From the IMG/VR virus record IMGVR_UViG_2718217636_000001: a stretch of 64,000 nt of DNA; one strand, written 5' to 3'. Below, one piece after another: positions 1,670-35,454 of this stretch (the first letter of the stretch is position 1; every line of letters begins with the position of its first letter). The notes beneath the pieces were generated by a model that was not told where the DNA came from, did not search any database, and saw only the letters and a list, made by a program, of their open reading frames with translations. Made by a program: the position numbers and the translations under genes. The stretch is from an uncultured virus (IMG/VR IMGVR_UViG_2718217636_000001). Its lineage: Duplodnaviria; Heunggongvirae; Uroviricota; Caudoviricetes.

Positions 1670-2635
1670 CTAGCGCTTGAACATGCTGATCTTGGCCATC
1701 GTGACCTTCTCCACGACAGCGTCGCTCGAGGTGGGGTTAATGACCCTGAGCCGGAGCTGGTTCTTGGAGTTGAGCGCGAACTGGCCGCCCACGCTCGTCT
1801 CGACGCGGCCGTTGACGTCGGCCCGGAAGGACAGCCGCCAGGCGTTGTCGTCGAACTCCTTGCCGTCGCGGTCGTACCGCGACCAGGCGACGTCGATCTC
1901 AGAGCCGGGCTTCAGGCCGCGCACCTTGACCAGGCCGTCCACGATGCACCAGCGCGCGGTCGCCGCCATGATGGCGACTCCGTCCGCGCTGTGGCCGGGC
2001 GGGTCGTCGGCGTACTCGGTGTGCCAGCTCACCGCCATCTCGCCGCTGGCCGGGACGTCCTGGTCCTCACCGGCTCCTAGGGAGATCACTTCGGGCACGT
2101 CGTCCTCCTCCTGCCTGGTCGGGGTTCCGGGGTGCGTGATCAGCGCGGCCACGTGCCCCCGGAAGGTGGTCATGTTGATCGAGTGCGGGTCGGGCTTGCC
2201 GGTGTTGACCTCCCGGTGCGCCTTCACCCGCGAGGCCGGCAGGCCGAACTCTCGGCACAGCTCCGCGCACAGCGCTTCGTAGGCGTCGAGCTGCACCTGC
2301 GGCCACGCCGTCTTGCCGTCGTTCTCGGCCTCGATGCCGATCGACGTGCTGTTCATGTGCTGCGAACTGGTGGACGGCGCGTTGTGCCAGCACCGCCCGG
2401 CGGCGACGACCCAGATCCGGCCGGTGTGCTGCAGCCAGAAGTGCGACAGCGGCCCGTCCAGTCCCGGCCTGCCGTTCACCACGATGTGCCGGTCATTCCA
2501 GCCAGCGGTGTGGTGGCAGACCACGCCCTGCACGGCCTGCTGCGGCCCGTGCCCCCTGGTCTTCCACCCGCCGACCTCCGTCACCGGGTACCCCGTCTTG
2601 CGGGCGACCGAGGCGAGCTGCGTCAGCCACGGCAT
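1670..2635 (-). CDS. Endolysin, amidase_2-type N-acetylmuramoyl-L-alanine amidase
   Basis: GWKTRGH, CHHTAG, GRCWH, IGIEAEN, HRE, KPDP; ATG at 2635 with AAGGAAGGAG RBS. Confidence 0.85.
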   Translation of the reverse strand: MPWLTQLASVARKTGYPVTEVGGWKTRGHGPQQAVQGVVCHHTAGWNDRHIVVNGRPGLDGPLSHFWLQHTGRIWVVAAGRCWHNAPSTSSQHMNSTSIGIEAENDGKTAWPQVQLDAYEALCAELCREFGLPASRVKAHREVNTGKPDPHSINMTTFRGHVAALITHPGTPTRQEEDDVPEVISLGAGEDQDVPASGEMAVSWHTEYADDPPGHSADGVAIMAATARWCIVDGLVKVRGLKPGSEIDVAWSRYDRDGKEFDDNAWRLSFRADVNGRVETSVGGQFALNSKNQLRLRVINPTSSDAVVEKVTMAKISMFKR

Positions 2636-2649
2636 GGTGCCTCCTTCCT

Positions 2650-2994
2650 TCAGCTGCTCGTGAGTTGGATCAGCGCGATCACCGTGCCCGCCGCAGCGAT
2701 CAGGACGGTCACGACGGCGATGATCTGCCGCGTCCGGTCCGTCAGCTGACTGCGAGTCACCGCCTCCCGCTCCATCACGTCCACGCGCCCTTCCATCGCC
2801 GCGTACCGGGCGTCGGCTGCGGCGCGGTCCTGCTCGACGCGCTTGACCAGTTCGGCGTGCCGGTCGTCCACCCATTCCAGACGCTGCAGGATCAACGCCG
2901 TGCTGCCGTTCGTCCGCTCGAACCCAAGCTCGACCGCGCTGCGCAGCTCCGCCAACGCCAGCGCCAGATTCGGTAGCGTCTCCTCCTCGCTCAT
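2650..2994 (-). CDS. Coiled-coil protein with C-terminal TM helix (lysis-cassette membrane protein)
   Basis: MSEEETL...IIAVVTVLIAAAGTVIALI; immediately upstream of endolysin. Confidence 0.7.
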   Translation of the reverse strand: MSEEETLPNLALALAELRSAVELGFERTNGSTALILQRLEWVDDRHAELVKRVEQDRAAADARYAAMEGRVDVMEREAVTRSQLTDRTRQIIAVVTVLIAAAGTVIALIQLTSS

Positions 2995-3653
2995 ACCGGC
3001 GCCGAACCCGGCTCGGTCGGCATCCCCATGAAGGTGTCCGGCGGCTTCAGGTCGAAGTTCGGCTCCCGCGCGCTGCCCGTTGACCGAGCCCAGCTCACCG
3101 CCAGGCGGCGCGCCTCCACCCGGATCGGGTCGAGTTGCGCCGCCCGGATCGGATCCAGAGGATCGGACGGGGCCACCCGCCGCGACCCGATGAACGCCAG
3201 AGCGCTCTGCCGGTCGTCCACGCTCGCCGGCTCGATCCGGATGCGGTACTTCTTCACCGCCGCGATCCGGGTCAGATGGGCTTCCAGCCGGGTCTCGTCC
3301 GAAACGCCCGGAGTCCAGCACGTCGGCATGCCCTGCGTCACCGCGATGACCCTCGCCGACGTCGGATCCATCAGCGCGAGCGGGTCGTCCTCACGCGGGA
3401 TGTAGGACTCGTGCAGGATGACGTCGAGCAGGGTGTCCTTGTCGTCCGGGTCGATCCCGTACTCGGCCGCGCGCCATTCCAGGGTGCTGTGGGGGAACGT
3501 CTTCAGAAACCTGCTGCCGTTCTCCTTGACGACCGCGACGCCCCACAGCGGCTCGGCGCCCATCGGGTTGACCCGGGCCGGGTCGGCTTGGGCGTGGTAG
3601 ATCGGGCCGTACGACAGCTCGGCATCCCACGTGGTCCAGGTCAGTGGCATCAT
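2991..3653 (-). CDS. Tail-tip partner protein B (paralog of 6589-7047)
   Basis: ATGA-coupled to 3650-6460; FPHSTLEWRAAEYGID and DPLDPIR...DPIRV motifs. Confidence 0.7.
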   Translation of the reverse strand: MMPLTWTTWDAELSYGPIYHAQADPARVNPMGAEPLWGVAVVKENGSRFLKTFPHSTLEWRAAEYGIDPDDKDTLLDVILHESYIPREDDPLALMDPTSARVIAVTQGMPTCWTPGVSDETRLEAHLTRIAAVKKYRIRIEPASVDDRQSALAFIGSRRVAPSDPLDPIRAAQLDPIRVEARRLAVSWARSTGSAREPNFDLKPPDTFMGMPTEPGSAPV

Positions 3654-6460
3654 GCGCTCCCGTTGTGTCGATGGGCCCACCAATAGACGGCCTTGCCCGA
3701 GCGCACGCCGCCGCCCTCACCCCAGCTGATGATGAAGGCCACCTGCGTGCTGGACTCGATGCACCAGTTGAAGTTGGGGTCCAGGCTGGGGTTGCTGGTT
3801 ATCGCGCCGTCGCGCAGCACCGCGACCGGCCCCATGTTTCCCTGCATGCTGGGCCCGTAGACGATCTCGACGCCGGTCCAGCCTGAGCTGGTGATCCGCG
3901 ACCCGGCGTGGACGCCCCACGTGTTCGTCGCGAAGGTGTTGTCCCACCACTTGCCGTAGTGAGTCGTCATCCCGCTCGCGTCGAACCACATGTACTGGTT
4001 ATCGCTGGTGCCGTCGTCGTAGCCGATCCGGCTGTAGTCCTCGGCGCTCTCCAAGAACCCGCCGTTGGGGTTGCCGTTGGACGGCCGCAGTACATCCAGC
4101 TTGGTCCAGCCGGCCGCGAGGGTGAAGAACGTCCGCGCCGTGTTGCCCGGGTTGGTGCCCGAGGTGATCTCGAACGTGGCCTCGCCGGGGAACGCGTCGT
4201 CGCGGGTGTAAAGCCGGGAGTAGTTTGTGGTGCCTTGCGGGTAAAAGCGGATGTCCAAGGTGGTGGGGTCGATGACGATCCGCTGCCCGGTCGTGCCGGT
4301 GCGGATGATCGACCCCGTGATGGTCTTGCCGGAGATCGCGTCAGCGGCGATCTTCGCGGCCGTGATCGCGTTGGCGGCGATCTTGTCGGCGGTGATGGCG
4401 TTCGAGCTGATGTGGCTCGCCTCGATCGCGCCCGCGTTGATCTTGTCCGCCGTAATGGCGTTCGCGGCGATCTTGTCGGCCTCGATCGCCAGCGCCTGGA
4501 TCAGGCCGCCCGTGATCGACCCCGCCACGATCTTGGCGTTGGCGGGGATCGACCCGGCGATGATGTGCTCCGCGCCGTCGATCACCTGCCCGATCAGGTC
4601 GGCGTCCACCAGCGGCACCGTGGCGATCACCCCGGCCGCCGTGGCGGCCGACTCGTTCCCGCTCCGGTCCACCGCCGTCAGCCACACCTCGCGAGGTGCG
4701 TTGTACGGCTGATCCGGGATCACCACGACGCCGGCTGCCGTCAGATGGTCCACCTCGGCGGCAGGCGTGTCCGGGTCCAGCGGATCCCGCATCCACACCC
4801 GCACCCGATCGAAGTCCGGGGGCATCGGCACGCCGCCGTCGCCCAGCCCGTCCCACGCCACATGGATCACGCCGAGCCGCGTGGTCAGCGTCGGCGGCGA
4901 CGGCACCGGAGGAGGCGTCGCGTCGTCCGGGACGAGCACGGCGACCGGATCGCTGAACTCGCCCTTCGTGCCGTCGTTGCCGACCGCGCGCACCTTGAAG
5001 CCGTACTCGCTGTTCACGTTCAGCGGCGACACCGACGCCGACACGTCGCCCGATGCGGTCTGCGCCACCAAGAACCACAGCTCGCCTTCGGCGTTGACCC
5101 GGGCGTACACCTCGTAGCCGTCCACGTCGAGCGCCACACCGTTGACGTCCTGCGTGACCGGCCCCCACGTCGCCACGGCGAGGCCCTGCGCGTACCCGGC
5201 CGCGTCCAGGTACGCGACCGGCTCCACGATCAGGCCCTGCGGCGCGGCCGGAACCCGGCCGCTGGAGTCCGGTGCCGGCGTCGCACCCGACCCGCCCGAG
5301 GAGACGCCGCCCGCGAGGATGCCCTGCGTCTTGCGGGCAAGCTTGATGTCGTCTTCCAAGAATCGGTCGTTGAGCACGAGGTTGCCGGACAGCTTGCCGT
5401 CGCCCGCCCGCGACAGCGTGACCTGCCGGATCCGCAGCGGCTCCATGTGGCCGCCGTCGCCCGGCGCGAGCACCGTGTCGCCCGGCTGGTAGGCCGCCCA
5501 CGGCAGCCACCTGGCCACCGCGAACACCACGGCGCGGGTGATCTGCACCCGCTCCCCCGACGCGCGGTCCAGAGCGGCCTGAGCGAGCGCGGTAGCGGTC
5601 CCCTCATCGGACACCCCGCCCTGCTGCTGATAGGTCTCCCAGCGGCCCCACGGGGCGTTCGCGGAGGTGTTGGTGACCTCGTGCGTGAACCCGCCCTCGC
5701 CAGCGATAAGGATGGCGGTAGAGACGTCCTCCAGCGTGGCGTCATCTGGGGCCTGGTCGACGTCGCGGCCGAGCCGCAGGTCCACCAGGCCAGGGCCGGC
5801 CGACCGGTCCGCCGCCATCACGGTGCCCTCGTTGAACACCTCCAGCGTGCGGCCGCTCATCCGCCAGTCGATCACACCCTGATCGGAGAGGTTGAGCAGC
5901 AGCGTCAGCAGGTCAACGCCGGGTTCCAGCGCGATCGTCAGCGTCGCCGCCCACGGCTCGCCAGCGCTGTCGGTGCTGGCGGTGAACCCGGCCGTCATCC
6001 CGGCCAGCGCGCCCCGCGCCTTCGCCTCCCCGATGAGGGTCAGCAGCACCGCCCCGGCCGGGACGGCGTTGAACTGCCGCTTGCCGTCCACGAGCTGGTC
6101 GTTCGGGTAGAGCACCGCCTTCTTGAACTGCCAGGCGTAGCCGGGGCAGGTGTAGCCGCGCTTCCCCGCCTGGTCGGTGGCGTCCGACGTCCGCTTGATC
6201 CGCAGGAACCGCGCGTTGGGCGGCTCCACCCAGCCGCCGCCGGCCGAATACTCCAGCGCAACCTCGCACGGCTGCGCGAGCAGGCCAATGCCGGGCGCGT
6301 GCGAGGTGTAGTCCAGCCGCAGCGACGACACATCGTTCAGCGGCGCGCCCGCCTCGAAACCCAGCGGGAACGGCAGCAGCCCCAGCCTCGGCCCGTTCGG
6401 CTCGTACGCCACCAGCCGCACCCCGTACGACGCCGCCTCACTGGGCTCGATCACCTGCAT
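3650..6460 (-). CDS. Tail tip/hub protein B (hub-like N-terminus, Fn3-like domains, ITADKI repeats, variable C-terminus)
   Basis: 936 aa; YGFKVRAV Fn3-like motif; AITADKIAAN repeats; position after Dit. Confidence 0.8.
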   Translation of the reverse strand: MQVIEPSEAASYGVRLVAYEPNGPRLGLLPFPLGFEAGAPLNDVSSLRLDYTSHAPGIGLLAQPCEVALEYSAGGGWVEPPNARFLRIKRTSDATDQAGKRGYTCPGYAWQFKKAVLYPNDQLVDGKRQFNAVPAGAVLLTLIGEAKARGALAGMTAGFTASTDSAGEPWAATLTIALEPGVDLLTLLLNLSDQGVIDWRMSGRTLEVFNEGTVMAADRSAGPGLVDLRLGRDVDQAPDDATLEDVSTAILIAGEGGFTHEVTNTSANAPWGRWETYQQQGGVSDEGTATALAQAALDRASGERVQITRAVVFAVARWLPWAAYQPGDTVLAPGDGGHMEPLRIRQVTLSRAGDGKLSGNLVLNDRFLEDDIKLARKTQGILAGGVSSGGSGATPAPDSSGRVPAAPQGLIVEPVAYLDAAGYAQGLAVATWGPVTQDVNGVALDVDGYEVYARVNAEGELWFLVAQTASGDVSASVSPLNVNSEYGFKVRAVGNDGTKGEFSDPVAVLVPDDATPPPVPSPPTLTTRLGVIHVAWDGLGDGGVPMPPDFDRVRVWMRDPLDPDTPAAEVDHLTAAGVVVIPDQPYNAPREVWLTAVDRSGNESAATAAGVIATVPLVDADLIGQVIDGAEHIIAGSIPANAKIVAGSITGGLIQALAIEADKIAANAITADKINAGAIEASHISSNAITADKIAANAITAAKIAADAISGKTITGSIIRTGTTGQRIVIDPTTLDIRFYPQGTTNYSRLYTRDDAFPGEATFEITSGTNPGNTARTFFTLAAGWTKLDVLRPSNGNPNGGFLESAEDYSRIGYDDGTSDNQYMWFDASGMTTHYGKWWDNTFATNTWGVHAGSRITSSGWTGVEIVYGPSMQGNMGPVAVLRDGAITSNPSLDPNFNWCIESSTQVAFIISWGEGGGVRSGKAVYWWAHRHNGSA

Positions 6461-6596
6461 GCGTTGCCCCCCTCTTCAGCTCTGCTTGGAGCTGGTCAAC
6501 GGCGGTCGCCAAGACCGCGTTCTCGTAGATCAGCTCAGCGATGCGCCGCTTCAGCGCCTCCGCCACGGCGACGGGATCCACTCGCAGCTCATCCAC
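6438..6596 (-). CDS. Small coiled-coil protein
   Basis: VDELRVDPVAVAEALKRRIAELIYENAVL; overlaps both neighbours. Confidence 0.55.
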   Translation of the reverse strand: MDELRVDPVAVAEALKRRIAELIYENAVLATAVDQLQAELKRGATHAGDRAQ

Positions 6597-7047
6597 CAGC
6601 GCCCCCCGCCAGCAGCGAGTCTCTCTGCAGCCGGATCGTGGCCACCCGCACCGGATCCACCCGCACCCGCTCGCGCAGCACCTGCAGCGGATCCGCGGCG
6701 GCCCTCGCCAGCCCGTTCGCGGGCGCGGCCACCACCTCGGCGTACCGCTTCTTGCACCCCTCGACCTGGTCGCGGATCCGGGCCCGCGCGGTGGCCACGT
6801 CGTCCGCCAGCACCGGCAACACACCGTCGTGGCCGTCCGCGCGCATCAGGTGCAGCAGCGGCGTATACAGCAGGACCTCGATCGCCTCGTCGAGGCTGTC
6901 GAGGCCGTGTTCGGCCATGCGGATCTCGAAAGCGTCCTTCGGCCAGGACGCCGCGAACGGCTGCCCGTCGCCGACCGGCTCGTAGTGGATGAGCCACGTC
7001 TCCGGCTCCTCCGTCACGCTGGTGATCCGCCACTGCGCCACTGCCAT
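6589..7047 (-). CDS. Tail-tip partner protein A (paralog of 2991-3653)
   Basis: Coupled to 7047-9803; WPKDAFEIRMAEHGLD and DPLQVLR...DPVRV motifs. Confidence 0.7.
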   Translation of the reverse strand: MAVAQWRITSVTEEPETWLIHYEPVGDGQPFAASWPKDAFEIRMAEHGLDSLDEAIEVLLYTPLLHLMRADGHDGVLPVLADDVATARARIRDQVEGCKKRYAEVVAAPANGLARAAADPLQVLRERVRVDPVRVATIRLQRDSLLAGGAGG

Positions 7048-9803
7048 CAGCTCACTCCGTGCTGTCTCCACGCCCACACGTGCAGCAGCACGTTGAACGT
7101 CGTCCCTGACGCGGTCTCCGACGACCGCAGCGTGAACCCGGACGGCCCCGGCGACGCGATGTGGAACGCGAGCCGAGCCGGGACCGGGCTGTCGGCCGTG
7201 ATGTTGAGCCTCGGCGTGGACTGCAGCGTCACCGAGAACCCGACGAAGTACGACGACGCGGCACCGCCCGCCGCTGGCAGGCTCCGCCCGAACATGACCA
7301 GACCGGCGCCGGTCGCCTCGTATGTGAAGGTGCCCCGGAACGTCGTGTAGCCGCTGGCCGAGCTGCCGCCGCCGTTGGTGAACAGCCACCTGTTCAGGCG
7401 GCCCGCGATGTCGTTAAAGCCCACCTCCAGCTGGTCGGGCTGCGCGAACATGTAGCCGCCGCCGGCCAGGCCGTCCGAGGACTGCACCATGTGCATGCGC
7501 CACTCGTCGCCCTGTTGGATCACTTCGCTGCGGCGGGTGCCGTCCGTGCTCGTGCCTGAGTACAGGCGGATCGCGGCTTCGGTGTCGGTCCAGATGCGGG
7601 CGTAGTTGAGGCCCGCGCCTGGGTAGAAGCGGATCTCTGGGTCGCTCGCCCCGGCGGGGTTGACGACGATCCGCCGCCCGAGGACGCCGGTCGCGAGCTG
7701 CCCGATGATCGACACCGCGCCGGACGCCGACGAGATGGACACCGTCTGCTGCGACGACGCATCGAACGCCGCCAGCCCGTCCTCGTTGAGCTCCACCCGC
7801 GCCCCGGCCGGAGCCCCGGCCACGATCCGCGTGGCCAGAGTGAGCACCGCCTCCAGCTTGTCGGCCGTGACCGCGTTGGCGGCGATGTGGCCCGCCTCGA
7901 CCGCGCCCGCGTCGATCTTGTCGGCCGTGACCGCGTTCGCCACGATCGCGCCGGTCGTGATCGACTCGTCAGCGGCGTCGCCCTGCACGAGTTGCACCGC
8001 GGCGATGACCACGCTCGCGGACGGGGCCGACTCGTTCCCGGCGTGGTCGACGGCGGTCAGCCAGAACTCGCGCAGCGCGCCGTACGGCTGGCCGGTGACC
8101 ACGATCGACCCGGCCGCCTGCAGATACCCGACTTCGGCCGCGCCGGGGTTGAGCGGGTCCTGCATCCACACCCGCGCCCGGTGGAAGTCGGCCGGCATCG
8201 GCTCTCCGCCGTCGCCGAGGCCGTCCCATTCGACGTGGATCACGCCCAGCCGGGTCGTGAGCGTCGGCGCGGACGGCACGGGCGGCGGGGTGACGTCATC
8301 CGGGATGAGCACCGCGTACTCGTCGGAGAAGTCGCCCCTGACGCCTTGCGAGGTGGCGCGCACCTTGAAGGCGTACTCCTCGCCGACGAGCAGCGGGGAG
8401 AAGGTCGCCGTGGTGTCGTCCGGCTCGGTGGTGGCCACCAGGAACCACGGCGCGCCGACCACGTTCTCCCGCATGAACAGCTCGTAGGAGTCGATGTCGA
8501 CCGCCTCGCCGTTCACGTCCAGGAGCACCGGCCCCCACGTGGCGGTGATCTGGCCCTGCGCGTGCCCGGTCGCGTCCACGTACGCGATCGGGTCCACGAT
8601 CAGCCCCTCCGGGGCCGCCGCTGTGCGGCCGCGCGGCGTGGGCGGGGCGGGCTGCGCGCCGGACCCTCCCGAGGCGGTGGAGCCGCCGACGATGCCCGCG
8701 GTGCGGCGGGCGAGCCTGATCGACTGCTCAAGGAAACGGTCATTGAGCACGACGTTTCCGCCGACCGTGCCCTTGTCGTCCTTGGTGAGGGTGATCTGCC
8801 GGACCCGCAGCGGCGCCAGCGTGCCGCCGCTCGCTGGGGCGATGATCTTGTCTCCGGGCTGGTAGTCCCGCCACGGCAGCCACCGCGCCCCATGCGGCGT
8901 GATTTCGCGGGTGTGCTGCACCCGCTCCTGGGCGGCGCGCAGCAGCGACCCCTCCGCGAGCAAGAACGCCGTCCCCTCATCGCTCACGCCGCCCTGCCCG
9001 ATGTAGTTCTCCCATCGGCCCCACGGCAGGACCGCGCTGGAGCCGTACGACTTGCGGAATCCTTCGTCGCCGACGATGAGCACGGCGTTCGCGGCGTCCT
9101 CCAGGGTGCCCGTGTCGGGGGCGTCGAACACGTCGCGGCCGAGCAGCAGGTCCACGCGCGGCGCGGCCGTACGGTCGCGAGCCAGCGCGCTGTCGGCGTT
9201 GTAGACGTGGAGCGTCCGGCCCTCCATGCGGAAGTCGATGACGGACTGCTCAGCGAGGTTGATCAGCGTCGTGAGCGCGTCCAGGCCCAGCTGGTAGTAG
9301 ATGGTCAGGATCTTCGCCCACGGCTGGCCAGCGCTGTCGTGAGTCGTGGTGAACGTCCAGTCGAGCGCGGGCAGCGCCCCCCGTGCCTGGGCCTCAGCAA
9401 GGAATGTCTGCAGGATGGTGCCAGGCGTCGCCGACGTGAACGCGCGCTTGCCGTCGACCAGCGGAGCGGGCCCGGGGAACAGCACGATCTTGCGGAGCTG
9501 CCAGCCATAGCCGGGCAGCTCGAACGTCTCGACGCCGGCCTCGTCGGTGACGTCCGTGCCGCGCTTGATCCGTAGGAACCGCGCGTCCGGCGACTCTGTC
9601 CACATCTGCCCGTCGTCCGTCCACTCCAACGCAATCTCGCAGGGCTGTGCGAGCAGCTGCGCGCCGAGGGTGTGGCGGCTGTACTGCAACGTCATCGCGG
9701 GCACGTCGTTCAGCGGATGCCCGACCTCGAAGGACAGCGGGTGCGGTAACAGGCCCAGACGCGGCCCGTTGGGAGCGAAGGCGACCAACCTAAGTTCGTA
9801 CAC
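7047..9803 (-). CDS. Tail tip/hub protein A (paralog of 3650-6460)
   Basis: 918 aa; RLVAFAPNGPRLGLLP, PWGRWE..GGVSDEGTA, YAFKVRA, VTADKI repeats. Confidence 0.8.
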   Translation of the reverse strand: MYELRLVAFAPNGPRLGLLPHPLSFEVGHPLNDVPAMTLQYSRHTLGAQLLAQPCEIALEWTDDGQMWTESPDARFLRIKRGTDVTDEAGVETFELPGYGWQLRKIVLFPGPAPLVDGKRAFTSATPGTILQTFLAEAQARGALPALDWTFTTTHDSAGQPWAKILTIYYQLGLDALTTLINLAEQSVIDFRMEGRTLHVYNADSALARDRTAAPRVDLLLGRDVFDAPDTGTLEDAANAVLIVGDEGFRKSYGSSAVLPWGRWENYIGQGGVSDEGTAFLLAEGSLLRAAQERVQHTREITPHGARWLPWRDYQPGDKIIAPASGGTLAPLRVRQITLTKDDKGTVGGNVVLNDRFLEQSIRLARRTAGIVGGSTASGGSGAQPAPPTPRGRTAAAPEGLIVDPIAYVDATGHAQGQITATWGPVLLDVNGEAVDIDSYELFMRENVVGAPWFLVATTEPDDTTATFSPLLVGEEYAFKVRATSQGVRGDFSDEYAVLIPDDVTPPPVPSAPTLTTRLGVIHVEWDGLGDGGEPMPADFHRARVWMQDPLNPGAAEVGYLQAAGSIVVTGQPYGALREFWLTAVDHAGNESAPSASVVIAAVQLVQGDAADESITTGAIVANAVTADKIDAGAVEAGHIAANAVTADKLEAVLTLATRIVAGAPAGARVELNEDGLAAFDASSQQTVSISSASGAVSIIGQLATGVLGRRIVVNPAGASDPEIRFYPGAGLNYARIWTDTEAAIRLYSGTSTDGTRRSEVIQQGDEWRMHMVQSSDGLAGGGYMFAQPDQLEVGFNDIAGRLNRWLFTNGGGSSASGYTTFRGTFTYEATGAGLVMFGRSLPAAGGAASSYFVGFSVTLQSTPRLNITADSPVPARLAFHIASPGPSGFTLRSSETASGTTFNVLLHVWAWRQHGVS

Positions 9804-9817
9804 GGTGACCTCTTCCG

Positions 9818-10723
9818 GTGCAAAGACAGCAGGAGGCGCGGGACACTGGGGTGGTGTCTAGTGCTCCCTCGGCCCCCGAGAACGGGGCATCACTACTCGA
9901 CCGGATCGAAGATGCGGCGCTGAACCCTAACGTCCCGCTCTCAGATGCCCTACGTGCATGTATTGCCTTGGGCGGCCGCGCAGGATCCGCCGCCCTCCGC
10001 GAATGGGCAGGCCGTGAGCTAAACGGTTACACGGGCAAGAAAGACCTGCCAGATTACCGAATCGTGCCAGCGTCGCTATATGTGGACCACACGAACCTAG
10101 GGGGATTCAACCGAATGCCTCAACGAGTTAGCCCACAGATGCTCAGACGGGACCTTCCCGAAGGTGTGCGCGAGGTGATCGACGAGGAGGTCCGCCTGCC
10201 CGACCCGATTAGAACTCTCGAAGGGCATGCCAACGGTCACGAGGACGATCTACGCTTCACCTTCGGCAACTCCGAGATGGTGGCACAGTTCCTTACCCGC
10301 CTCTGGCAGCAGCAAGGCGCAATTGCGTCGAATCAGGTTGTCGCAGCCATCTATTGGAAGCTCCCTCGTCCTGTGCTGCTTGGAGTGCTCGATCGAATCC
10401 GAACAGCTCTGGTCGTACTCGTGGCAGAACTTCGTGAGGCCACTCCCACAGGCCAAGAGGTCCCCTCTCCGACCGATACAGATAACGCGCTCAAGAAGGC
10501 GGTCGGAGATATCAAGATCGACGGTGACCACAACGTGGTAACCGTCCAGATGAGTGACTCAGGTGACATAACAGCCAAGATCAAGGACTCCCCGGACAAT
10601 GAAGGCGAAGCTACCAACCGAAAGGTGTGGTCTCTAGTAGGTTGGGGGATCGGAATTCTGGTCGCGATTGTGGGCGCTTATGCCGGCCTCGGCCAATGGT
10701 TGAACTGGCCAGCACCATGGTGA
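9818..10723 (+). CDS. AbiTii-like N-terminal domain protein with C-terminal TM helix (moron)
   Basis: LSDALRACIALG...LREWAGRELNGY...LPDYRIV; lower GC; opposite strand; start uncertain. Confidence 0.7.
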   Translation: MQRQQEARDTGVVSSAPSAPENGASLLDRIEDAALNPNVPLSDALRACIALGGRAGSAALREWAGRELNGYTGKKDLPDYRIVPASLYVDHTNLGGFNRMPQRVSPQMLRRDLPEGVREVIDEEVRLPDPIRTLEGHANGHEDDLRFTFGNSEMVAQFLTRLWQQQGAIASNQVVAAIYWKLPRPVLLGVLDRIRTALVVLVAELREATPTGQEVPSPTDTDNALKKAVGDIKIDGDHNVVTVQMSDSGDITAKIKDSPDNEGEATNRKVWSLVGWGIGILVAIVGAYAGLGQWLNWPAPW

Positions 10724-10736
10724 ACCTGCATCAAGG

Positions 10737-11609
10737 TCACAAGTAGGAGCGGCGCGCCCGGATCGCGAGAGCTGAAGCGACCGAGGTGCCCAATGCCGTA
10801 GCGTCGACCAGGACGGCCCGCGAGTGCGGATCACCAACCGCCATGGCCGGCGTCAGGTGCAGCCATCGGAACGCCGAGCCGGGGCCGGTCGCGTTGATGT
10901 CGCCGGTCACGTCCATCCCGCCGGTCTGGTCCCACGTGTCCGTCGTGACGATCGCCGCCGTCAGCTGGCCGCAGTCGATCAGCAGATGCTCCCCAACCTG
11001 CACCGTGCCGGTGTAGGCCACCGTCCCGCCGGTGGCCACGTCGCTCGCGGACGGCTGGACGGCGGGGCCAGTGATCCGCAGCATCGCGTCCACGATGGGG
11101 CCGGTGCTGCCCGCGAGCGGCGTGACGATCTGGCCCGCGCCCGGCACGGCTCCGGTCCACGTCGCGCCGGCCTCGTCCCGCCAGTACACCCCGGGCACCT
11201 TCACCACGGCGGTTAGCCTGGCTATGGCCGCGCCCGGGAAGTACTCCGGCTCGCTGACCGCCTCCACCATCACGTCGGCGACGCGGACGATCGTCCCCGT
11301 CACCCACTTCAGCGCCATGAGCCGGTGCCTCGTCCCGAGCAGCGCGCCGAGCGCCTCCAGGTTGTGCTCCATCTGCTGCGCCCCGCCGTCCACACCGGAC
11401 GGCGTGAACGGGTAGATGGTGAGCGCCAGCGCCAGCGTCGTTGCCTCGTGGTCCAGGCCCAGCACCGGCAGGTCACCCGCCCGGCCGGGCACGGACAGGT
11501 TCACCGACCGCAGCCCCGGCAGGGGGCGCCGCTTCGTGCCCTTCTTCAGGCGCCAGCACCCCGCCGGGTGGTCCAGGGGGACCCCGTCGAGGATGTACGT
11601 CGCGCCCAT
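10737..11609 (-). CDS. Distal tail protein (Dit-like)
   Basis: Follows tape measure; VPGRAG, PGVYW, GSTGPI motifs; about 290 aa. Confidence 0.7.
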   Translation of the reverse strand: MGATYILDGVPLDHPAGCWRLKKGTKRRPLPGLRSVNLSVPGRAGDLPVLGLDHEATTLALALTIYPFTPSGVDGGAQQMEHNLEALGALLGTRHRLMALKWVTGTIVRVADVMVEAVSEPEYFPGAAIARLTAVVKVPGVYWRDEAGATWTGAVPGAGQIVTPLAGSTGPIVDAMLRITGPAVQPSASDVATGGTVAYTGTVQVGEHLLIDCGQLTAAIVTTDTWDQTGGMDVTGDINATGPGSAFRWLHLTPAMAVGDPHSRAVLVDATALGTSVASALAIRARRSYL

Positions 11610-13807
11610 CACACCACCCCCATTGCGCTGGCCAGTTGCAGGCCGCGGTTGATCGTCTGCGAGCCCGGCTCAGCGACCGGGTTGATCACCGTCTGGTTGA
11701 TGACCACTCCCCCGCTGTGGCCCTGCCTGCCCACCGCGGCCGCCGCCGGCCTGAGCGACCCAGACAGGTCCGGGTTGAACGCGGTGGTGAGCTGCCCCGC
11801 GATGCTGCGGGCTGTGCGCATCACCTGCCCGGCCGACTTCTGCATGCCCTGCGCCATGCCGAGCATGGTGTAGCCGCCGATCTCCGCGAACACCCTGCTC
11901 GGACTGGAGATGCCGAGGGCCTGCCGCACCCAGTCCGGCATGATCGAGCTGAAGAAGCCGTACAGCGCGTTCTTCAGCCAGTCGTACATGGACTGGACGC
12001 CGGACCAGATGCCGGTCATGGCGGCCTGCCCGATGCCGGACATCACGGAACCGATGTCGCCGACCGCGCGCACCAGCCCGTCCGGCAGGTCCGCGAAGAA
12101 GCCGACCAGCGTGCCGCCGATCCACTTACCGATCCCCGTCACCATGTCCGGGATGATCGAGTGGCCGATCAGCACGTCGTACAGCCAGCCGAACAGCCTC
12201 GCGACGCTCTCCACCATCGCCGACACGATCGTGGTGACCACCTGCACGGCCGGGCCGAGCACGGTCGTCAGGGCCTGCGCCAGCACACCCACCATCGACA
12301 CGACGTGCGGCAGGACCGCGCTGGTCAGCTGCAGCAGCGGCGGCAGGAGCGGCATCACCGCCTGGAAGATCTGGATGAACGCGCCCGCGAGCTGCATCAG
12401 CACCGGAGCGAGCACTGCCGCGAGCTGTACAGCTTGCGGCAGTATCTGCGCGCTGAACTGGGTCAGCATCGGCAACAGCGGAGCCACGGTCGGCAGCAGC
12501 GAGGAGAACGTCTGGACGAACTGCAGCAGCGTGGGCGTCAGGTCGAGCAGCGCCTTCATCAACTGCGCGCCGAACAACACCACGACCTGCGACAGCACAG
12601 GCAGGATCGGCGAGATCGCCCGGATCATGATGCCGAGGGCCTGCACCAGGACGCCGCCGAGGATCGTCGCGACCTGCCCGACCAGCGGCAGCAGCGGAGC
12701 CAGCGCCGGAACCAGCGCGGACGCGATCTGCACCACCAGGTCCACCAGCGGGCCGACCAACGGCACCAGGGCGAGCAGCAGCGCGCCGAACGCGGCGGCG
12801 ACCTGCCCGACGACCGGCTGCAGCCGGACCAGCGCCGACGACAGCACCCCGGACAGGATCTGCACGACCTGCACGATCACCGGCATCAACGTCGTCGCGA
12901 GCACGGCCGCCAGCTGCAGCAGCGGCGACAGCAGCGGAAGCACCGCGCCAGCGAGCTGGGCGACGCTGCCCAGCAGCATGGACGCCGCCGGGGTGACGGC
13001 GACGATCGCGGACAGCAGCGACCCGGCGAGGGCCTGCACGATCATCTGCAGCGCGGACAGGACGGGCCCCATGAGCTGCGCCCCGACCTGCACCAGCCCG
13101 CCGATGAACGGCCCGAGGATCTGCAGGATGCCGCCGACCCCGATCACGAACTGCGCGAGCAAGCCGCTGTTCGCGGCGAACGCCGACGTGATCGGGGCGA
13201 GGAACGCCGCCACCTGGGCGGCGAAGGTACCCAGCGCCCCGGCGAGCTGCGACAGCATCGGGACGATCGCCCCGATGATCTGCTGCACGGCCGGGAGGAT
13301 CGGCACGAGCACGTGCACCAGCGCCGTGGTGAACTGCCCGATGAGCGGGCTGAGCTGCTGAAACATGGCCGCGAGCTGCGGCGCGATCATCGTGGTGAAG
13401 ATCGTCTGCAGGTTCCCGGCCAGCTGCACCAGCGGCTGCTCGAACGTCGCCGCAGCGGCCTTCAGGTGCATCCCCACGGTGGACGCCATCGCAGAGAACG
13501 CGAGCTGCACGTCCTCGCTTGTCGCCGCGGCGGCGATGCCGATCGCGGCGATCCCGCCGACCAGGCCGGCGAAGGCCCCGGCCGCGCCCACGGCGACGGC
13601 GGACGCGGCCACGCCGAGCCCGGCCATCGCCGTACCGGCCACCGTGGTGGCCAGCGAGATCGCGGCGCCCGTCTTCGCGACCCTGGCCGAGGCGTCGTCG
13701 AACTGACCGCTCATGGTGCGCAGCGCGACGACGGCCCGGCCCACGCCGGGGGTGAGGTTGTCCCGGAGGCTGATTGTGGCGAACAGGTCGCCGACGTTGA
13801 GCGCCAC
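11609..13807 (-). CDS. Tape measure protein 2
   Basis: 732 aa; MALNVGDLFATISLRD start, LxPLL amphipathic repeats, GISSPSRVFAEIG; own RBS GGGAGGTGA. Confidence 0.85.
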   Translation of the reverse strand: MALNVGDLFATISLRDNLTPGVGRAVVALRTMSGQFDDASARVAKTGAAISLATTVAGTAMAGLGVAASAVAVGAAGAFAGLVGGIAAIGIAAAATSEDVQLAFSAMASTVGMHLKAAAATFEQPLVQLAGNLQTIFTTMIAPQLAAMFQQLSPLIGQFTTALVHVLVPILPAVQQIIGAIVPMLSQLAGALGTFAAQVAAFLAPITSAFAANSGLLAQFVIGVGGILQILGPFIGGLVQVGAQLMGPVLSALQMIVQALAGSLLSAIVAVTPAASMLLGSVAQLAGAVLPLLSPLLQLAAVLATTLMPVIVQVVQILSGVLSSALVRLQPVVGQVAAAFGALLLALVPLVGPLVDLVVQIASALVPALAPLLPLVGQVATILGGVLVQALGIMIRAISPILPVLSQVVVLFGAQLMKALLDLTPTLLQFVQTFSSLLPTVAPLLPMLTQFSAQILPQAVQLAAVLAPVLMQLAGAFIQIFQAVMPLLPPLLQLTSAVLPHVVSMVGVLAQALTTVLGPAVQVVTTIVSAMVESVARLFGWLYDVLIGHSIIPDMVTGIGKWIGGTLVGFFADLPDGLVRAVGDIGSVMSGIGQAAMTGIWSGVQSMYDWLKNALYGFFSSIMPDWVRQALGISSPSRVFAEIGGYTMLGMAQGMQKSAGQVMRTARSIAGQLTTAFNPDLSGSLRPAAAAVGRQGHSGGVVINQTVINPVAEPGSQTINRGLQLASAMGVV

Positions 13808-13849
13808 GATGCCTCACCTCCCGAGGAACGTCCGTGGGCGGGAGAGAGG

Positions 13850-15850
13850 TCAGGACAGGAGGCCGACCGCTGCGGCGTACTGCAGGCCCCGGTTCATCGA
13901 CCGCGAGGTGGGTTCTGCCTGCGGGTAGTGGTTGTTGATCACCATGTGGATCTGGCGACCATCGCCACCGCCCCCGGCTCCGCCGCCTCCGGCCGGGACT
14001 GCCACGCGCGGCGGCGGCGCGGCCACGGGGACCTGCGGGGCGTACGTGAGCGGCCCTGGCGCGGCCTGCTGCAGCGTGGTGGACAGCCGCGCGGCCATCT
14101 GCTGCAAGCCCTTCTGCTTGCGTGCCATGCCGTTGATCAGGCCCTGCACGTTCTGCTGGCCGATCTCGGCGAACACCTTCGACGGGCTGGAGATGCCGAA
14201 GATGCCCTTCACCAGGTCAACCGCGCCCTTGGCGAGGTTCTTGATCGTGTCGACGAAGCTGTTCCACGCCGAGAGGAACCCGTCGCGGATGCCGGTCACC
14301 AGGTCCCGCCCAAGGGTCATCAGCTTCTCGAAGGCGTTCTTGATCGTCGTGGCGAAGGTCGTGACGCCCTTCTTGATCGTCTCGAAGGCGCCCGAGAAGT
14401 CGCCGGTCAGGAGCTTGGCGAACGCGGTCACGATGCTGATCAGCAGCGGCAGGATCGCCGTCGAGAGCTGGATCAGCGGCGGCAGGAAGGGGGTCACCGC
14501 CCCGACCACCTTGGCGAAGATCGTCGCCAGTAGCGTCAAGATCGGCGACAGAGCGTTGATCAGCTGCACCAGCGGCGGCAACAGGGCCTGAGCCAGCTGC
14601 GCAACCACCGGCAGCAGCGGCGTGATCGCGGGCAAGATCGCTGAGAAGGCGGACAGCAGCGCGCCCGCCAGAGCCGCCGCCACCTGCCCGACCAGGGGGA
14701 TGATCGGCGTGATCGCGGGGATGAGCTGCGACGCCAGCGTGCCCACCAGCTGAGCGATGGGCGGCAGCAGCGGCAGCACAGCGGTGATCAGCTGACCGAA
14801 CGCCGTAGCGATCTGCCCGACCACCGGCGTGAGCTGGACAAGCACCGGCTGCAGCGCGGCGACGATCGTCTGCGCCACCTGCGTCAGCACCGGCATCAGC
14901 GCGGTTGCCAGAGTTGCCGCGAGCTGCAGGATCGGCGGCAGAAGCGGGATCAGCGCAGCCACAATCCCGGCGAGCCCCGTGACGAGCTGGCCGATCACGG
15001 GCGCGATCTGGATCAGGACGGGACCGAGCTGCGCCGACAGGGTCGAAGCGATCAGCTGCAGGCCGGCCATCAGCGGCCCGGCCACGGTCCCGGCGAGCTG
15101 CACGAACGCGCCCAGCAGCGGCCCGAGCGCCTGCAGCAGGCCGCCGATCCCCGTGACCAGGGTCGCCAGCAGGCCGGAGTTCTGCGACAGCGCGGCCGAC
15201 ACCGGCTCCAGGAAGCCGGCGAGCTGGCCACCGAACTGGCCGAGACTCCCGGCCAGGACGGACAGCATCGGCGCGACCGCCGCCACGATGCCCGAGATGG
15301 CGGGCAGCAGCGGCCCGAGCATCTGCCCGAGCCCGCCCGTGAACTGCGTGACCAGCGGCGCGAGCTGCGTGAACATTCCCTGCAGCGCCGGAGCGATCTG
15401 GGAGGAGAACATGCCCTTGAGCTGGCCAGCAGCCGCGATCAGCGGCCCCTGGAAGACGCTCGCGGCGTCCGCCAGGTCGCTCTTCACCGACTCGCCGAGC
15501 CCGGCGAAGGCGGCCTTCACCTGCGGCGCGGCCATCGCCGCCGAGATGCCGAGCTTCGCGATGCCCGCCACAGCGCCCGCGAACGCCAGCGCCAGGCCGC
15601 CGCCCACCGCGACGCCGGCCGCGCCCACCCCGGCCAGCGCCACGCTGCTCTTGGCCCCGGCCGAGACGATCGCCTGGCCGCCCTTGGCGGCCGTGGACGC
15701 CATGCGGGTGGCGGCCAGGCCCGCGGCGATGAACGCGGCCTGGATGCCGGTCGCGTGAACCTTGATGCCAGCGGTGGCCTTGCCGAGCGGCCCCGTCATC
15801 TTGTCGCGCAGACTCAGGGTCGCGTACAGGTCACCGATCGACAGAGCCAC
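13850..15850 (-). CDS. Tape measure protein 1
   Basis: 666 aa; MALSIGDLYATLSLRD start, same repeats, GISSPSKVFAEIG; follows tail chaperones. Confidence 0.85.
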   Translation of the reverse strand: MALSIGDLYATLSLRDKMTGPLGKATAGIKVHATGIQAAFIAAGLAATRMASTAAKGGQAIVSAGAKSSVALAGVGAAGVAVGGGLALAFAGAVAGIAKLGISAAMAAPQVKAAFAGLGESVKSDLADAASVFQGPLIAAAGQLKGMFSSQIAPALQGMFTQLAPLVTQFTGGLGQMLGPLLPAISGIVAAVAPMLSVLAGSLGQFGGQLAGFLEPVSAALSQNSGLLATLVTGIGGLLQALGPLLGAFVQLAGTVAGPLMAGLQLIASTLSAQLGPVLIQIAPVIGQLVTGLAGIVAALIPLLPPILQLAATLATALMPVLTQVAQTIVAALQPVLVQLTPVVGQIATAFGQLITAVLPLLPPIAQLVGTLASQLIPAITPIIPLVGQVAAALAGALLSAFSAILPAITPLLPVVAQLAQALLPPLVQLINALSPILTLLATIFAKVVGAVTPFLPPLIQLSTAILPLLISIVTAFAKLLTGDFSGAFETIKKGVTTFATTIKNAFEKLMTLGRDLVTGIRDGFLSAWNSFVDTIKNLAKGAVDLVKGIFGISSPSKVFAEIGQQNVQGLINGMARKQKGLQQMAARLSTTLQQAAPGPLTYAPQVPVAAPPPRVAVPAGGGGAGGGGDGRQIHMVINNHYPQAEPTSRSMNRGLQYAAAVGLLS

Positions 15851-15905
15851 GGGTCACCTCCCCGGATAGTCGCTTGTCGCCAGCGGTATGGATTGCGTGA
15901 TCTGG

Positions 15906-16232
15906 TCAGCCGCGTACGCGGCGCGACCGGCTGGCCGCCTTGTCCGGGGGAGGGGCGAACTGGCGGGCCAGCCGCGTGTCAGCGGAGAGGAGGCCGACAA
16001 TCCGGGTGCGGAGCCACCGCCAGGAGCGGTGCTGCAGCAGGCCCGGCTCGTCGAGGTCGATCCCGTAGTGGCTGTGCAGGTCGGCCTCGATCAGGTCCCA
16101 GTGGGTCAGGAGCTTTTCCCACGTGATGTCCGAGCCTGCCGGGACCGGCTCGTACCACTCGTAGAGCCCCGTGACCGGGTCGTACTCGCCGCCGCCTCGG
16201 AGGCTGCCCGGTCCGGGGCCATGGCTTCCGGG
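15906..16232 (-). CDS. Tail assembly chaperone, frameshift-extended (gpT-like) part
   Basis: -1 frame relative to 16106-16585; WDLIEADLHSHYGIDL...SWRWLRTRIVGLL; 5' boundary set at the candidate shift site. Confidence 0.7.
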   Translation of the reverse strand, partial: PGSHGPGPGSLRGGGEYDPVTGLYEWYEPVPAGSDITWEKLLTHWDLIEADLHSHYGIDLDEPGLLQHRSWRWLRTRIVGLLSADTRLARQFAPPPDKAASRSRRVRG

Positions 16233-16585
16233 ACACCACCGGCGTCCCAGAAGCGCATCGCGGTGTCCAGGTCGGCCGCGATCCACAGGAACGCGGTCAC
16301 GCCGCAGTGCTTGATCTTCGGCCAGGACACCTTGTCGGCCACCAGCGCGTCATAGACCGGGCCGAGGCACCGCTTGTAGAGGTCGGTCTCCTCGTCGTCG
16401 TCCAGGTCGGCCAGGTCCGACAGGTCGGTCTGCTGGCCGGCCGCCGCCGCGACACCGGCCTGCATGAGCCTCTGGCACAGCAGGCCGGTTTCCGCGTCCG
16501 GCGCTGGGATGGTGTACTCGCTGCCGCTGACCGGCAGCGTGAGGGTGTCGTCGAAAAACTCGTCGAGGGCCTTGAGCTTCGCCAT
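16106..16585 (-). CDS. Tail assembly chaperone (gpG-like)
   Basis: Between tail tube and TMP; Ser/Arg-rich read-through tail. Confidence 0.75.
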   Translation of the reverse strand: MAKLKALDEFFDDTLTLPVSGSEYTIPAPDAETGLLCQRLMQAGVAAAAGQQTDLSDLADLDDDEETDLYKRCLGPVYDALVADKVSWPKIKHCGVTAFLWIAADLDTAMRFWDAGGVPEAMAPDRAASEAAASTTRSRGSTSGTSRSRQARTSRGKSS

Positions 16586-16588
16586 GAG

Positions 16589-17059
16589 TTATGCCGCCAC
16601 CGGGTTGTCGATCTCGGTGGGCTTGCCCTGGCCGAGCAGTTCGCACTCGAACGGCTCCAGGTCGGTGGTCTCGCCACCGGCACCCTTGTAGTCGACCGCG
16701 GCTCGGCCCTCGTACGCGTCCGGGCTGCCGTCGCGCCGGTACCAGCGGACGTGCACGTCAGCGCCGGGGCCGACGACGTGGCCGGCCTGGCGCAGGAACT
16801 CCTGGCCGGGGTCAGGCACGAACGCGGGGGCGTCGGCGTCCCGCTTCCGGTTGCCGTTGAGGGTCAGCGTCCACCCGCGCTGGGTGACGACCTGGCTGGC
16901 CCAGCCGTCGCCGTCGAAGTCCGAGTCGTCCTCGGTCTCGGTGTTGATCTCCTCGGCGAATTCCGTCAGGCCCTTCACGGGCGTCCAGGTCGGCACAGCC
17001 GGGGTGGCTGTGTTGACCTCGACGACCCAGTCCTTGGCGAGGAGGCTGCGCAGCGTCAT
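16589..17059 (-). CDS. Major tail (tube) protein
   Basis: DDSDFDGDGW, WTLTL, DPGQEFL, VRWY, FECELLGQG. Confidence 0.85.
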   Translation of the reverse strand: MTLRSLLAKDWVVEVNTATPAVPTWTPVKGLTEFAEEINTETEDDSDFDGDGWASQVVTQRGWTLTLNGNRKRDADAPAFVPDPGQEFLRQAGHVVGPGADVHVRWYRRDGSPDAYEGRAAVDYKGAGGETTDLEPFECELLGQGKPTEIDNPVAA

Positions 17060-17134
17060 CTCATCTCCTTGTGAGCGCATGCCGGAATGCCGCCAGCACT
17101 ATTGCTTGCGGCAAGGGGAAAAGGGGGTCGGGGA

Positions 17135-17590
17135 TCAGTCCCGGTGGGTGGAGGGGCGGACGCACATCAGCTCGTAGCTGTCGGCGCGCTCCACTCGGCC
17201 GGAGCCGTCCCGCGTGTGCGGGGACACGATGCGCCGCTGAGCCAGCAGCACCATCACGCCGGTCGAGAGGCGGTGCTCGGCCAGGCCGTGAACCGCGTTG
17301 AACACGGCGTCGGCCAGGTCGTCAGCCACGCGCGGGTCCGCGCCGCCCCGCACTCGGACCTGCACCAGCACGGAGCTGTCGGTCTGCTCGACGTCGTCGC
17401 CGCCCTGGCCGAGCCCGTACGTCGCCAGCGAGATCGCCAGGTCCGGCGTCGTCGGCAGGCCGCCCAGCGTGATCGCGGTCTGCGCCGCGGTGTAGACACC
17501 TTCGGGGTTCCAGTCGCCCGCGCCCGCGTCCTCCAGGAGCTGCCCGAGCCCTTCCAGGAGTTGCCGGGTCCATCCCTGCGGCGGCGTCAC
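17135..17590 (-). CDS. Tail terminator / minor capsid-type neck protein
   Basis: PTTPDLAISL, VQVRVRG; synteny. Confidence 0.7.
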   Translation of the reverse strand: MTPPQGWTRQLLEGLGQLLEDAGAGDWNPEGVYTAAQTAITLGGLPTTPDLAISLATYGLGQGGDDVEQTDSSVLVQVRVRGGADPRVADDLADAVFNAVHGLAEHRLSTGVMVLLAQRRIVSPHTRDGSGRVERADSYELMCVRPSTHRD

Positions 17591-35131: not shown

Positions 35132-35454
35132 GGGTGCGGCCTCCACTTGTGGCCGTGAATCTCTGGCAGGGGGCATGGACCAATCCAGTCGAGAGAGGGC
35201 TTGGAGTCCAGCACGATCAGGTGACCTGAGCCATACAGGCCAATGCGAAGACGAGAATCGGTCAGCTGCGTGGCGAGTCGCTCCACCTCTTCCACACGGA
35301 ACCCGTCGTTCAGAGTCGAACGGTGTACTCCGAACGTCTACCTTGCTTGAACAGCTCCCGGAGGTACCCTTGAGGGGCGCGTTGAAAAGCGGATCTCCGA
35401 TCAAGATTCACTGTCCTTACCCGAATCCTGAGCGATGCGGGCCCTACCCGCCCA

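Follow-up and report, generated by a model that had tools for sequence, protein, structure and literature searches.

A siphophage-type tail module with two tape measure genes and two Tal genes in a predicted Streptosporangiaceae prophage

The 64,000-nucleotide stretch of DNA analyzed here, from an uncultured virus (IMG/VR IMGVR_UViG_2718217636_000001) and called the window throughout, encodes a phage tail module in which one tail tube protein, one probable chaperone pair and one distal tail protein (Dit) are accompanied by two tape measure proteins (TMP1 and TMP2), two hub/fibre proteins (TalA and TalB) and two small partner genes (pA and pB). The window corresponds to G000:C6:223398-287397, inside a 413,553-bp contig of a 12.2-Mb genome, and has a G+C content of ~70%. 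A search for homologs of Dit found them almost only in Nonomuraea and other Streptosporangiaceae, and in the explanation that we favor, which taken as a whole we hold at about even, the element is a large siphophage-type prophage of a Nonomuraea-like actinomycete. A scan of 18 kb on each side of the window showed no clear boundary of the prophage.

The late operon of the phage runs on the minus strand from ~30 kb down to 1.7 kb and begins with the terminase, the portal, a MuF-like protein, a P22-type capsid protein, connector proteins, the tail terminator and the tube gene. The tube gene is followed by the chaperone and an overlapping open reading frame (ORF), TMP1, TMP2, Dit, an AbiTii-family gene on the opposite strand, TalA, pA, TalB, pB and an amidase endolysin. 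The ORFs and their Pfam and PHROG matches bear out the inventory given in a preliminary description of this DNA, namely a single tube gene, a single chaperone pair and a single Dit alongside two TMPs, two Tals and two partner genes, all on the minus strand. The features of the module are as follows:

17135..17590, minus strand: tail terminator, upstream of the tube gene (Pfam Phage_tail_terminator_6, E 8.3e-12; phrog_2595)
16589..17080, minus strand: tube (major tail) protein in single copy, "alpha" tube lineage (phrog_3884, E 1.4e-53)
16106..16585, minus strand: tail assembly chaperone (G-like), single copy (Pfam DUF7426, E 4.5e-51; phrog_3860 "tail assembly chaperone", E 2.9e-35)
15906..16286, minus strand: overlapping -1-frame ORF, which probably encodes the T-like frameshift extension of the chaperone (phrog_13398, E 2.2e-30, residues 54-119)
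13850..15850, minus strand: TMP1, tape measure of 666 aa, lineage alpha1 (tape-measure PHROGs, best phrog_58, E 6.5e-32)
11609..13807, minus strand: TMP2, tape measure of 732 aa, lineage alpha2 (tape-measure PHROGs, best phrog_305, E 2.6e-34)
10737..11612, minus strand: Dit, distal tail protein, single copy, 291 aa (predicted fold)
9818..10723, plus strand: AbiTii-family gene (Pfam AbiTii, PF18864, E 1.3e-25, 91.1 bits against a cut-off of 27.6)
7047..9803, minus strand: TalA, hub/fibre protein of 918 aa (N-terminal fold model; phrog_31834 "tail protein", E 1.2e-33)
6589..7044, minus strand: pA, small gene that follows TalA as its partner, ~151 aa counted from the first start past the TalA stop (conservation; homology to pB)
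3650..6460, minus strand: TalB, second hub/fibre protein of 936 aa (phrog_31834, E 2.9e-27; paralog of TalA)
2991..3683, minus strand: pB, gene that follows TalB as its partner, called at 230 aa (conservation; homology to pA)
1670..2875, minus strand: amidase endolysin, which marks the end of the tail module (Pfam Amidase_2, E 1e-22; phrog_880 "endolysin", E 2.9e-41)

No further TMP or Tal copies were found in the genome: all four TMP matches and all four Tal matches fall in this locus.

Anatomy of the duplicated genes and their neighbours

The two TMP genes are positioned between the chaperone and Dit, and their products align with each other from Met1 to the C-terminus (BLASTP, 37% identity, E 3e-93). 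TMP1 matches 21 PHROGs and TMP2 matches 14, most of them named tape measure. TMP1 starts with GTG behind a Shine–Dalgarno (SD) sequence of its own, GGGGAGGTG, and stops at a TGA; this is followed by a 42-nt spacer containing GGGAGGTG, the SD of TMP2, which also starts with GTG, in a different frame, and whose 3' end overlaps the start of Dit by 4 nt according to the coordinates. An N-terminal and a C-terminal motif recur in each of the 33 TMPs listed, among them those from single-TMP loci, and the C-terminal motifs of TMP1 and TMP2 are somewhat different in the window. Pfam revealed no enzymatic or other added domain in the window copies or in 10 TMPs of relatives; the only matches in these 10 were sub-threshold ones to Baculo_PEP_C, which we read as compositional. 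As each ORF is a full-length paralog of the other, the possibility that TMP1 and TMP2 are the two halves of one gene is ruled out. With their own SDs, the end motifs of single-copy TMPs and the purifying selection described below, both tape measures look functional and, as far as their sequences go, look like complete rulers.

The names Dit and Tal are justified by predicted folds, as sequence searches alone recovered neither fold. Dit has no sequence-level match in the PDB or Pfam. Its AlphaFold model (predicted local distance difference test, pLDDT, 82.9) matches SPP1 Dit (2x8k, E 2e-10), 4v96 of TP901-1, 2wzp of p2, 6v8i_AC and 8zdo_m of Douge in Foldseek, at E 2e-11 to 4e-07 and with the Dit of 80alpha among the matches, which supports the Dit fold of an N-terminal ring domain and a galectin-like domain. 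The model of TalA residues 1-395 (pLDDT 85.6, predicted template modelling score 0.80, 99 aligned sequences) has 73 PDB matches at E <= 0.001, with Mu gp44, T4 gp27, VgrG and the Tal chains of 80alpha, Bxb1 and Douge at E 1e-17 to 1e-11; a PDB sequence search with TalA and Dit returned fn3/titin-type matches or noise only. TalA is laid out as a four-domain hub of the gp27/gp44 type (residues 1 to ~360) followed by fn3, fibre repeats and a C-terminal domain. It is 50% identical to TalB over residues 2-826 (BLASTP, E 0), the two differing mainly in the last ~100 residues; the hub of TalB was assigned by sequence, this region being 56% identical to that of TalA.

The partner genes are barely recognizable as relatives in single-sequence BLASTP (E 0.001 only), and profile-profile comparison with hhalign gives a probability of 99.4% and an E-value of 1.4e-21; this homology of pA and pB indicates that the duplicated unit is the Tal together with its partner. 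Among related loci, pA is kept after TalA in 26 and pB is kept after TalB or the single Tal in 38 (alignments A3 and A4). pA has no Pfam or PHROG match, and a search of the ESM Atlas with pB gave no usable match; the Atlas record of pB begins at residue 11 of the called ORF. No enzymatic domain was found by Pfam in pA, pB or the C-termini of the Tals.

Dit is split from TalA by the AbiTii-family gene, which is absent from the preliminary description and has a lower G+C content than its surroundings. It scores above the gathering threshold of the family (PF18864), and is prophage cargo inside a tail operon, outside the doubling. Cargo varies among relatives in this slot between Dit and TalA, which is occupied by an opposite-strand AbiTii gene in the window and in L011, L047 and L053, by a DUF6355 gene in L010, by an HTH-TPR protein in L028, and in L058 by an 8.8-kb island (UDP-glucose dehydrogenase, a metallo-beta-lactamase fold and a weak SIR2 match). 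In relatives with one Tal, Dit and Tal nearly abut.

Upstream of TMP1, the ORF at 15906-16286 is offset from the chaperone by -1, as calculated from the coordinates, and likely represents its frameshift extension. The 3' end of the chaperone (16106-16125, minus strand) reads GGG AAA AGC TCC TGA, with a GGGAAAAG run just ahead of the stop; read in the zero frame, this run is not a canonical X XXY YYZ slip site.

Distribution among relatives, history of the pairs and other genes of the prophage

Related loci were collected with the Dit alignment (A1) as the anchor, taking 10 kb on each side: 70 loci came from one-genome-per-species contigs and 35 from IMG/VR, of which 17 are duplicates of genome loci according to an exact 400-nt probe. 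Their ORFs were classed by BLASTP against the proteins of the window, which gave 63 classable loci, or 64 with the window. Left out as truncated, degraded or too distant were L009, L025, L028, L037, L042, L043, L051, L053, L054, L060, L063, L064, L072, L073, L075-L078, L107 and L109-L113. The combinations of TMP and Tal genes were distributed as follows:

Two TMPs and two full Tals: 18 loci and the window
One TMP and two full Tals: 14 loci
One TMP, a hub-only TalA (~384 aa) and a full TalB: 12 loci
One TMP and one Tal: 18 loci
Two TMPs and one Tal: 0 loci

L058 and L082, which have two TMPs and a Tal region that is cut off, stand outside the 64 classed. Two hub genes are therefore found with a single TMP in 26 of the 64 loci, and two of each in 19. 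The preliminary description had presented the doubling as coordinated and proposed co-occurrence in relatives as a check; the pattern is nested rather than paired, in that 26 loci combine two hubs with one TMP and no locus with two TMPs has a single hub, and the proposal as a whole is supported in part only. Judged by gene content, the two doublings are separate and not one coordinated doubling, and this same distribution indicates that the duplication of the Tal-partner unit is the older one and was independent.

Several variants of the Tal region were observed. The hub-only proteins of ~384 aa, which consist of the gp27-like domain alone and lie between Dit and the full Tal at ~10.9-13.1 kb of the locus, are found in L031, L033, L034, L036, L038-L040, L044, L045, L048, L049 and L091; in two of these loci (L033 and L040) the second Tal is itself divided, with a hub portion of 506-530 aa and the fibre encoded by separate ORFs. 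TalA is split into two ORFs in L020 (12465-15223). On the TMP side, L028 (6069-9969) is decayed, with a short TMP, ~2 kb of other sequence and then a 146-aa TMP C-terminal fragment, and L009 and L025 have only a TMP remnant upstream of Dit, without tube and chaperone. More than one related prophage is present in several genomes, which have two or three each and in some cases combine different TMP/Tal classes: N. basaltis (L025, L028, L042), Nonomuraea sp. NPDC050643 (L026, L072, L076), LPB2021202275-12-8 (L031, L032), B19D2 (L012, L048) and N. antri (L019, L060). Such multiple occupancy gives scope for recombination among the prophages as well as for exclusion pressure.

Phylogenetic analysis used neighbour-joining trees with Kimura distances and 50-100 bootstraps, in which the deep nodes of the TalA clade are weak (30-56). 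In the tree of hub domains (99 domains, 393 columns, 50 bootstraps), the Tals at position 2 (TalB) cluster with every single Tal (bootstrap 82), while the full-length Tals at position 1 form one clade (100) and the hub-only proteins at position 1 form another (100). The grouping of TalB with the single Tals indicates that TalB-pB is the ancestral unit and TalA-pA the addition next to Dit. Intact hub-only TalA genes are present in 11 genome loci and are under constraint, with a ratio of nonsynonymous to synonymous substitution (dN/dS) of 0.37 (55 pairs).

The TMP tree (66 TMPs, 712 columns, 100 bootstraps, two very distant TMPs being dropped) resolves two families, alpha and beta. The upstream copy of every pair belongs to the lineage alpha1, as does the single TMP of L029. 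The alpha2 clade is the sister of all alpha1 (bootstrap 100) and holds only downstream copies from the subclade of the window. The second family, beta, comprises the single TMPs of most one-TMP loci, including the single TMP of the other tube lineage, together with the downstream copies of L015, L021, L058, L032, L074, L046, L047 and L050. Pairs thus consist of alpha1 and alpha2 in the subclade of the window, with 7 pairs in the tree and 9 among the 20 paired loci measured for length and distance, and of alpha1 and beta elsewhere, where the corresponding numbers are 8 and 11. In the tree of tube proteins (61 sequences), all 21 two-TMP loci fall in one clade of 25 (bootstrap 100), whose four exceptions are L029 (alpha1 only, 858 aa), L052 and L053 (beta only, 1019 aa) and L028, where the TMP region is broken.

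As the upstream copy is always alpha1 and the downstream copy either alpha2 or beta, the TMP pair fits recombination better than a recent local duplication. In such an event, the tube-chaperone-TMP end of one phage would have been linked to the TMP-Dit start of another, and the product would have been retained for a long time. One segmental duplication spanning both blocks is ruled out, as had already been argued from the single Dit between them, an argument now strengthened by the different histories of the TMP and Tal pairs.

Using the method of Nei and Gojobori (NG86) on 7 loci (21 pairs) of the subclade of the window, dN/dS was 0.27 for TMP1, 0.36 for TMP2, 0.25 for Dit, 0.36 for TalA, 0.41 for TalB and 0.18 for the tube protein, values that are rough in absolute terms and meaningful only in the comparison between genes, as a third-position G+C content (GC3) above 90% compresses dS. 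In the alpha1+beta group, dN/dS was 0.49 for both TMP copies, with equal divergence (45 pairs). The four large genes are thus intact, diverged and under selection, as the preliminary description had supposed for them, and the relaxed selection on one paralog that it had named as grounds for abandoning its proposal was seen in neither TMP copy. The pairwise distances of the two TMP copies correlate: r is 0.92, a value attained in 2 of 2000 permutations, and 0.82, attained in 1 of 2000, a co-divergence that linkage by itself could yield. Lengths are tightly kept in the subclade of the window, where TMP1 measures 638-666 aa and TMP2 732-738 aa in 9 of 9 loci; across all paired loci, the gap between the two TMPs ranges from 22 to 388 aa and their sum from 1328 to 1908 aa.

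Outside the tail module, the MuF-like minor capsid protein (21988-23919, minus strand; Phage_min_cap2, E 8.6e-58) has an ADP-ribosyltransferase domain at its C-terminus (ADPrib_exo_Tox, E 1.2e-27) and is probably an ejected effector aimed at the bacterial host. The prophage also encodes a 787-aa protein with a LAGLIDADG_3 domain (55499-57862, minus strand), a possible homing endonuclease or intein-bearing protein, and, listed alongside it with the coordinates 32628-35407 (minus strand), an asparagine synthase-like gene and a C-5 cytosine methylase. Many of the relatives were found on contigs of ~90-120 kb, and L032 bears a plasmid label, which hints that some relatives are extrachromosomal phage-plasmids.

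Use of the two pairs in the virion

Several readings of this arrangement were weighed. As the two TMP ORFs are adjacent and in different frames, they might reflect one gene split by a sequencing frameshift or the mis-assembly of two strains, a reading refuted by their alignment as two whole genes, Met1 to C-terminus, and by the recurrence of the arrangement in 20 other loci from different assemblies; the spacer also has its own SD, and we give an artefact practically no credence. The preliminary description preferred a paired dimorphism, in which TMP1 and TMP2 would each dock in a tip of their own, built from TalA or TalB, to give two types of virion with a different receptor and tail length. 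In its favor are the somewhat different C-terminal motifs of the two TMPs in the window, the concentration of the differences between TalA and TalB in their last ~100 residues, the lack of both doublings in L029 and the finding that none of the 19 classed two-TMP loci is without two Tals. It is hard to reconcile with the 26 loci that have two hub genes and one TMP, where a single TMP C-terminal motif serves phages with both Tals, and with the variation of the downstream TMP between alpha2 and beta among relatives whose Tal lineages show no matching change; both observations argue against a tip for each TMP. The hub-only TalA of 12 loci argues likewise against TalA as an alternative tip, since it would produce virions without fibres. 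We consider this paired arrangement very improbable.

If every tail instead needed both TMPs, in a fixed heteromeric bundle or end to end (a sum of ~1400 residues, or ~210 nm), this would agree with a pair that is intact in 21 of the 25 loci of the tube clade, with co-divergence at r 0.92 and 0.82, with the similar dN/dS of both copies, with the tightly kept lengths of both in the subclade of the window, and with summed lengths of 1328-1908 aa, which we place within the single-TMP range of the wider group (up to 1769 aa). Obligate heteromers, also raised in the preliminary description, are weakened by relatives of the same tube/chaperone clade that have one TMP type, namely L029 with alpha1 only and L052 and L053 with beta only. 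Moreover, both copies keep the C-terminal motif of single TMPs, which the upstream member of an end-to-end pair would not need, and gaps of up to 388 aa oppose a parallel fixed bundle; we regard an obligate two-ruler tail as unlikely. A further reading is that one copy is the ruler and the other a passenger of recombination, either with another role, for example as an ejected channel or an anti-exclusion protein, or carried along by linkage. The pattern of TMP lineages does imply a recombinational origin, either TMP type suffices alone in relatives, and related prophages often share a host genome (several species with 2-3 loci), so that TMP-directed exclusion is conceivable; the passenger would have to be squared, however, with the absence of relaxed selection in either copy, with the full length, both terminal motifs and strong SD that both TMPs keep, and with the lack of any enzymatic or added domain in the 10 TMPs examined. 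This too we think rather doubtful.

The explanation that we favor combines two old, independent doublings with a facultative use of the rulers and a joint tip. The two-gene unit of Tal and partner would have been duplicated, with TalA-pA inserted between Dit and TalB, a doubling that is widespread in Streptosporangiaceae prophages and does not depend on a second tape measure. In one tube/chaperone lineage, a second complete TMP gene would then have come to adjoin the first, likely by recombination of phages with different TMP lineages at the chaperone-TMP-Dit junctions, and the linked pair would have been kept since. TMP1 and TMP2 would each be translated from their own ribosome-binding site and, as suggested by the shared end motifs, each would be able to fit into one and the same Dit-Tal initiator and serve as the ruler. 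Tail length amounts to ~0.15 nm per tape-measure residue. An induced cell would be predicted to assemble its tails around TMP1, around TMP2 or around bundles of both, with lengths of ~100 and ~110 nm, and a bet-hedging mix of two tail lengths is possible. The use of two TMPs would thus be facultative, not obligatory, which is favored by the single-TMP C-terminal motif on both copies and by the occurrence of either type alone in the same tube/chaperone lineage. TalA and TalB would be present together in one tip, TalA next to Dit and TalB distal; that they share one tip and do not define alternative virions is most likely, because a hub-only tip would carry no fibre, so that hubs at position 1 would be expected to join TalB. 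A bolder reading, which we think less likely than not, is that two different TMPs enter one particle, as a mixed bundle or end to end, on a two-storey tip with a TalA hub trimer between Dit and the ancestral Tal, an arrangement undescribed in siphophages.

The gene anatomy, folds, paralogy, distribution, selection and co-divergence on which this explanation draws are near certain; expression, incorporation into virions, stoichiometry and tip geometry are what we infer from them, and for these mechanistic parts our confidence runs from tentative up to even, with the explanation in its entirety evenly poised. A number of points weigh against it. No two-TMP locus among the 19 classed is without two Tals and L029 is without either doubling, so that there may be some link between the doublings, though shared ancestry explains the pattern. 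If the relatives with one TMP are defective prophages, as they may be, the case against obligate pairing falls away, and an obligate arrangement could equally explain the tight TMP lengths in the subclade of the window. A gap of 22-388 aa between paired TMPs is awkward for mixed bundles in one tail, and no structural precedent was found for a stacked two-hub tip. The weak deep nodes of the TalA clade and the compression of dS, noted with the trees and ratios above, count on the same side.

Relation to known siphophage tails

In textbook accounts of long-tailed phages, one tape measure gene supplies the ruler and one kind of Tal hub plugs the tip of the tail. The canonical siphophage module with one TMP (lambda gpH, SPP1 gp18, the TP901-1 TMP) has the same order of tube, chaperone pair, TMP, Dit, Tal and lysin as the window, from which it differs in that here two complete TMPs of different lineages lie between chaperone and Dit, as a linked pair in 21 loci. 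The nearest isolate by tube protein, Streptomyces phage Eastland (41% identity), has the usual order and one TMP of 1115 aa. No close isolated phages were found: the best TMP matches have ~30% identity over 37% of the query, the best Tal match 36% and the best tube match 42%. Similarly, the Dit-Tal initiator of siphophages of Gram-positive hosts (SPP1 gp19.1/gp21, 80alpha, TP901-1 and the mycobacteriophages Bxb1 and Douge) shares with the window the Dit fold, the gp27-like hub and a Dit directly after the TMP, whereas here two hub-bearing Tal paralogs follow one Dit and 12 relatives combine a hub-only protein with a full Tal. In such initiators the Tal hub is a trimer that closes the tube under the Dit hexamer, with one kind per tail, a rule from which two hub paralogs depart.

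In the part of the literature covered, which is incomplete and so offers no proof, no phage with two complete TMP genes or with two hub paralogs in one siphophage tip was found, and the matches to "two tape measure" in it all refer to pairs of chaperones, to phages compared with one another or to a draft frameshift. We regard the finding as both genuine and out of the ordinary. Two complete rulers of different lineages and, separately, two hubs, stably kept, constitute a natural experiment, which opens the questions of how rulers are counted and chosen at tail initiation, whether mixed bundles form, and how far a tail tip can extend; natural relatives in the single state (alpha1 only, beta only, hub-only TalA or a single Tal) allow comparison. 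If the arrangement is plain redundancy after recombination, it would mean that phage mosaicism can still leave long-lived duplicates of core structural genes.

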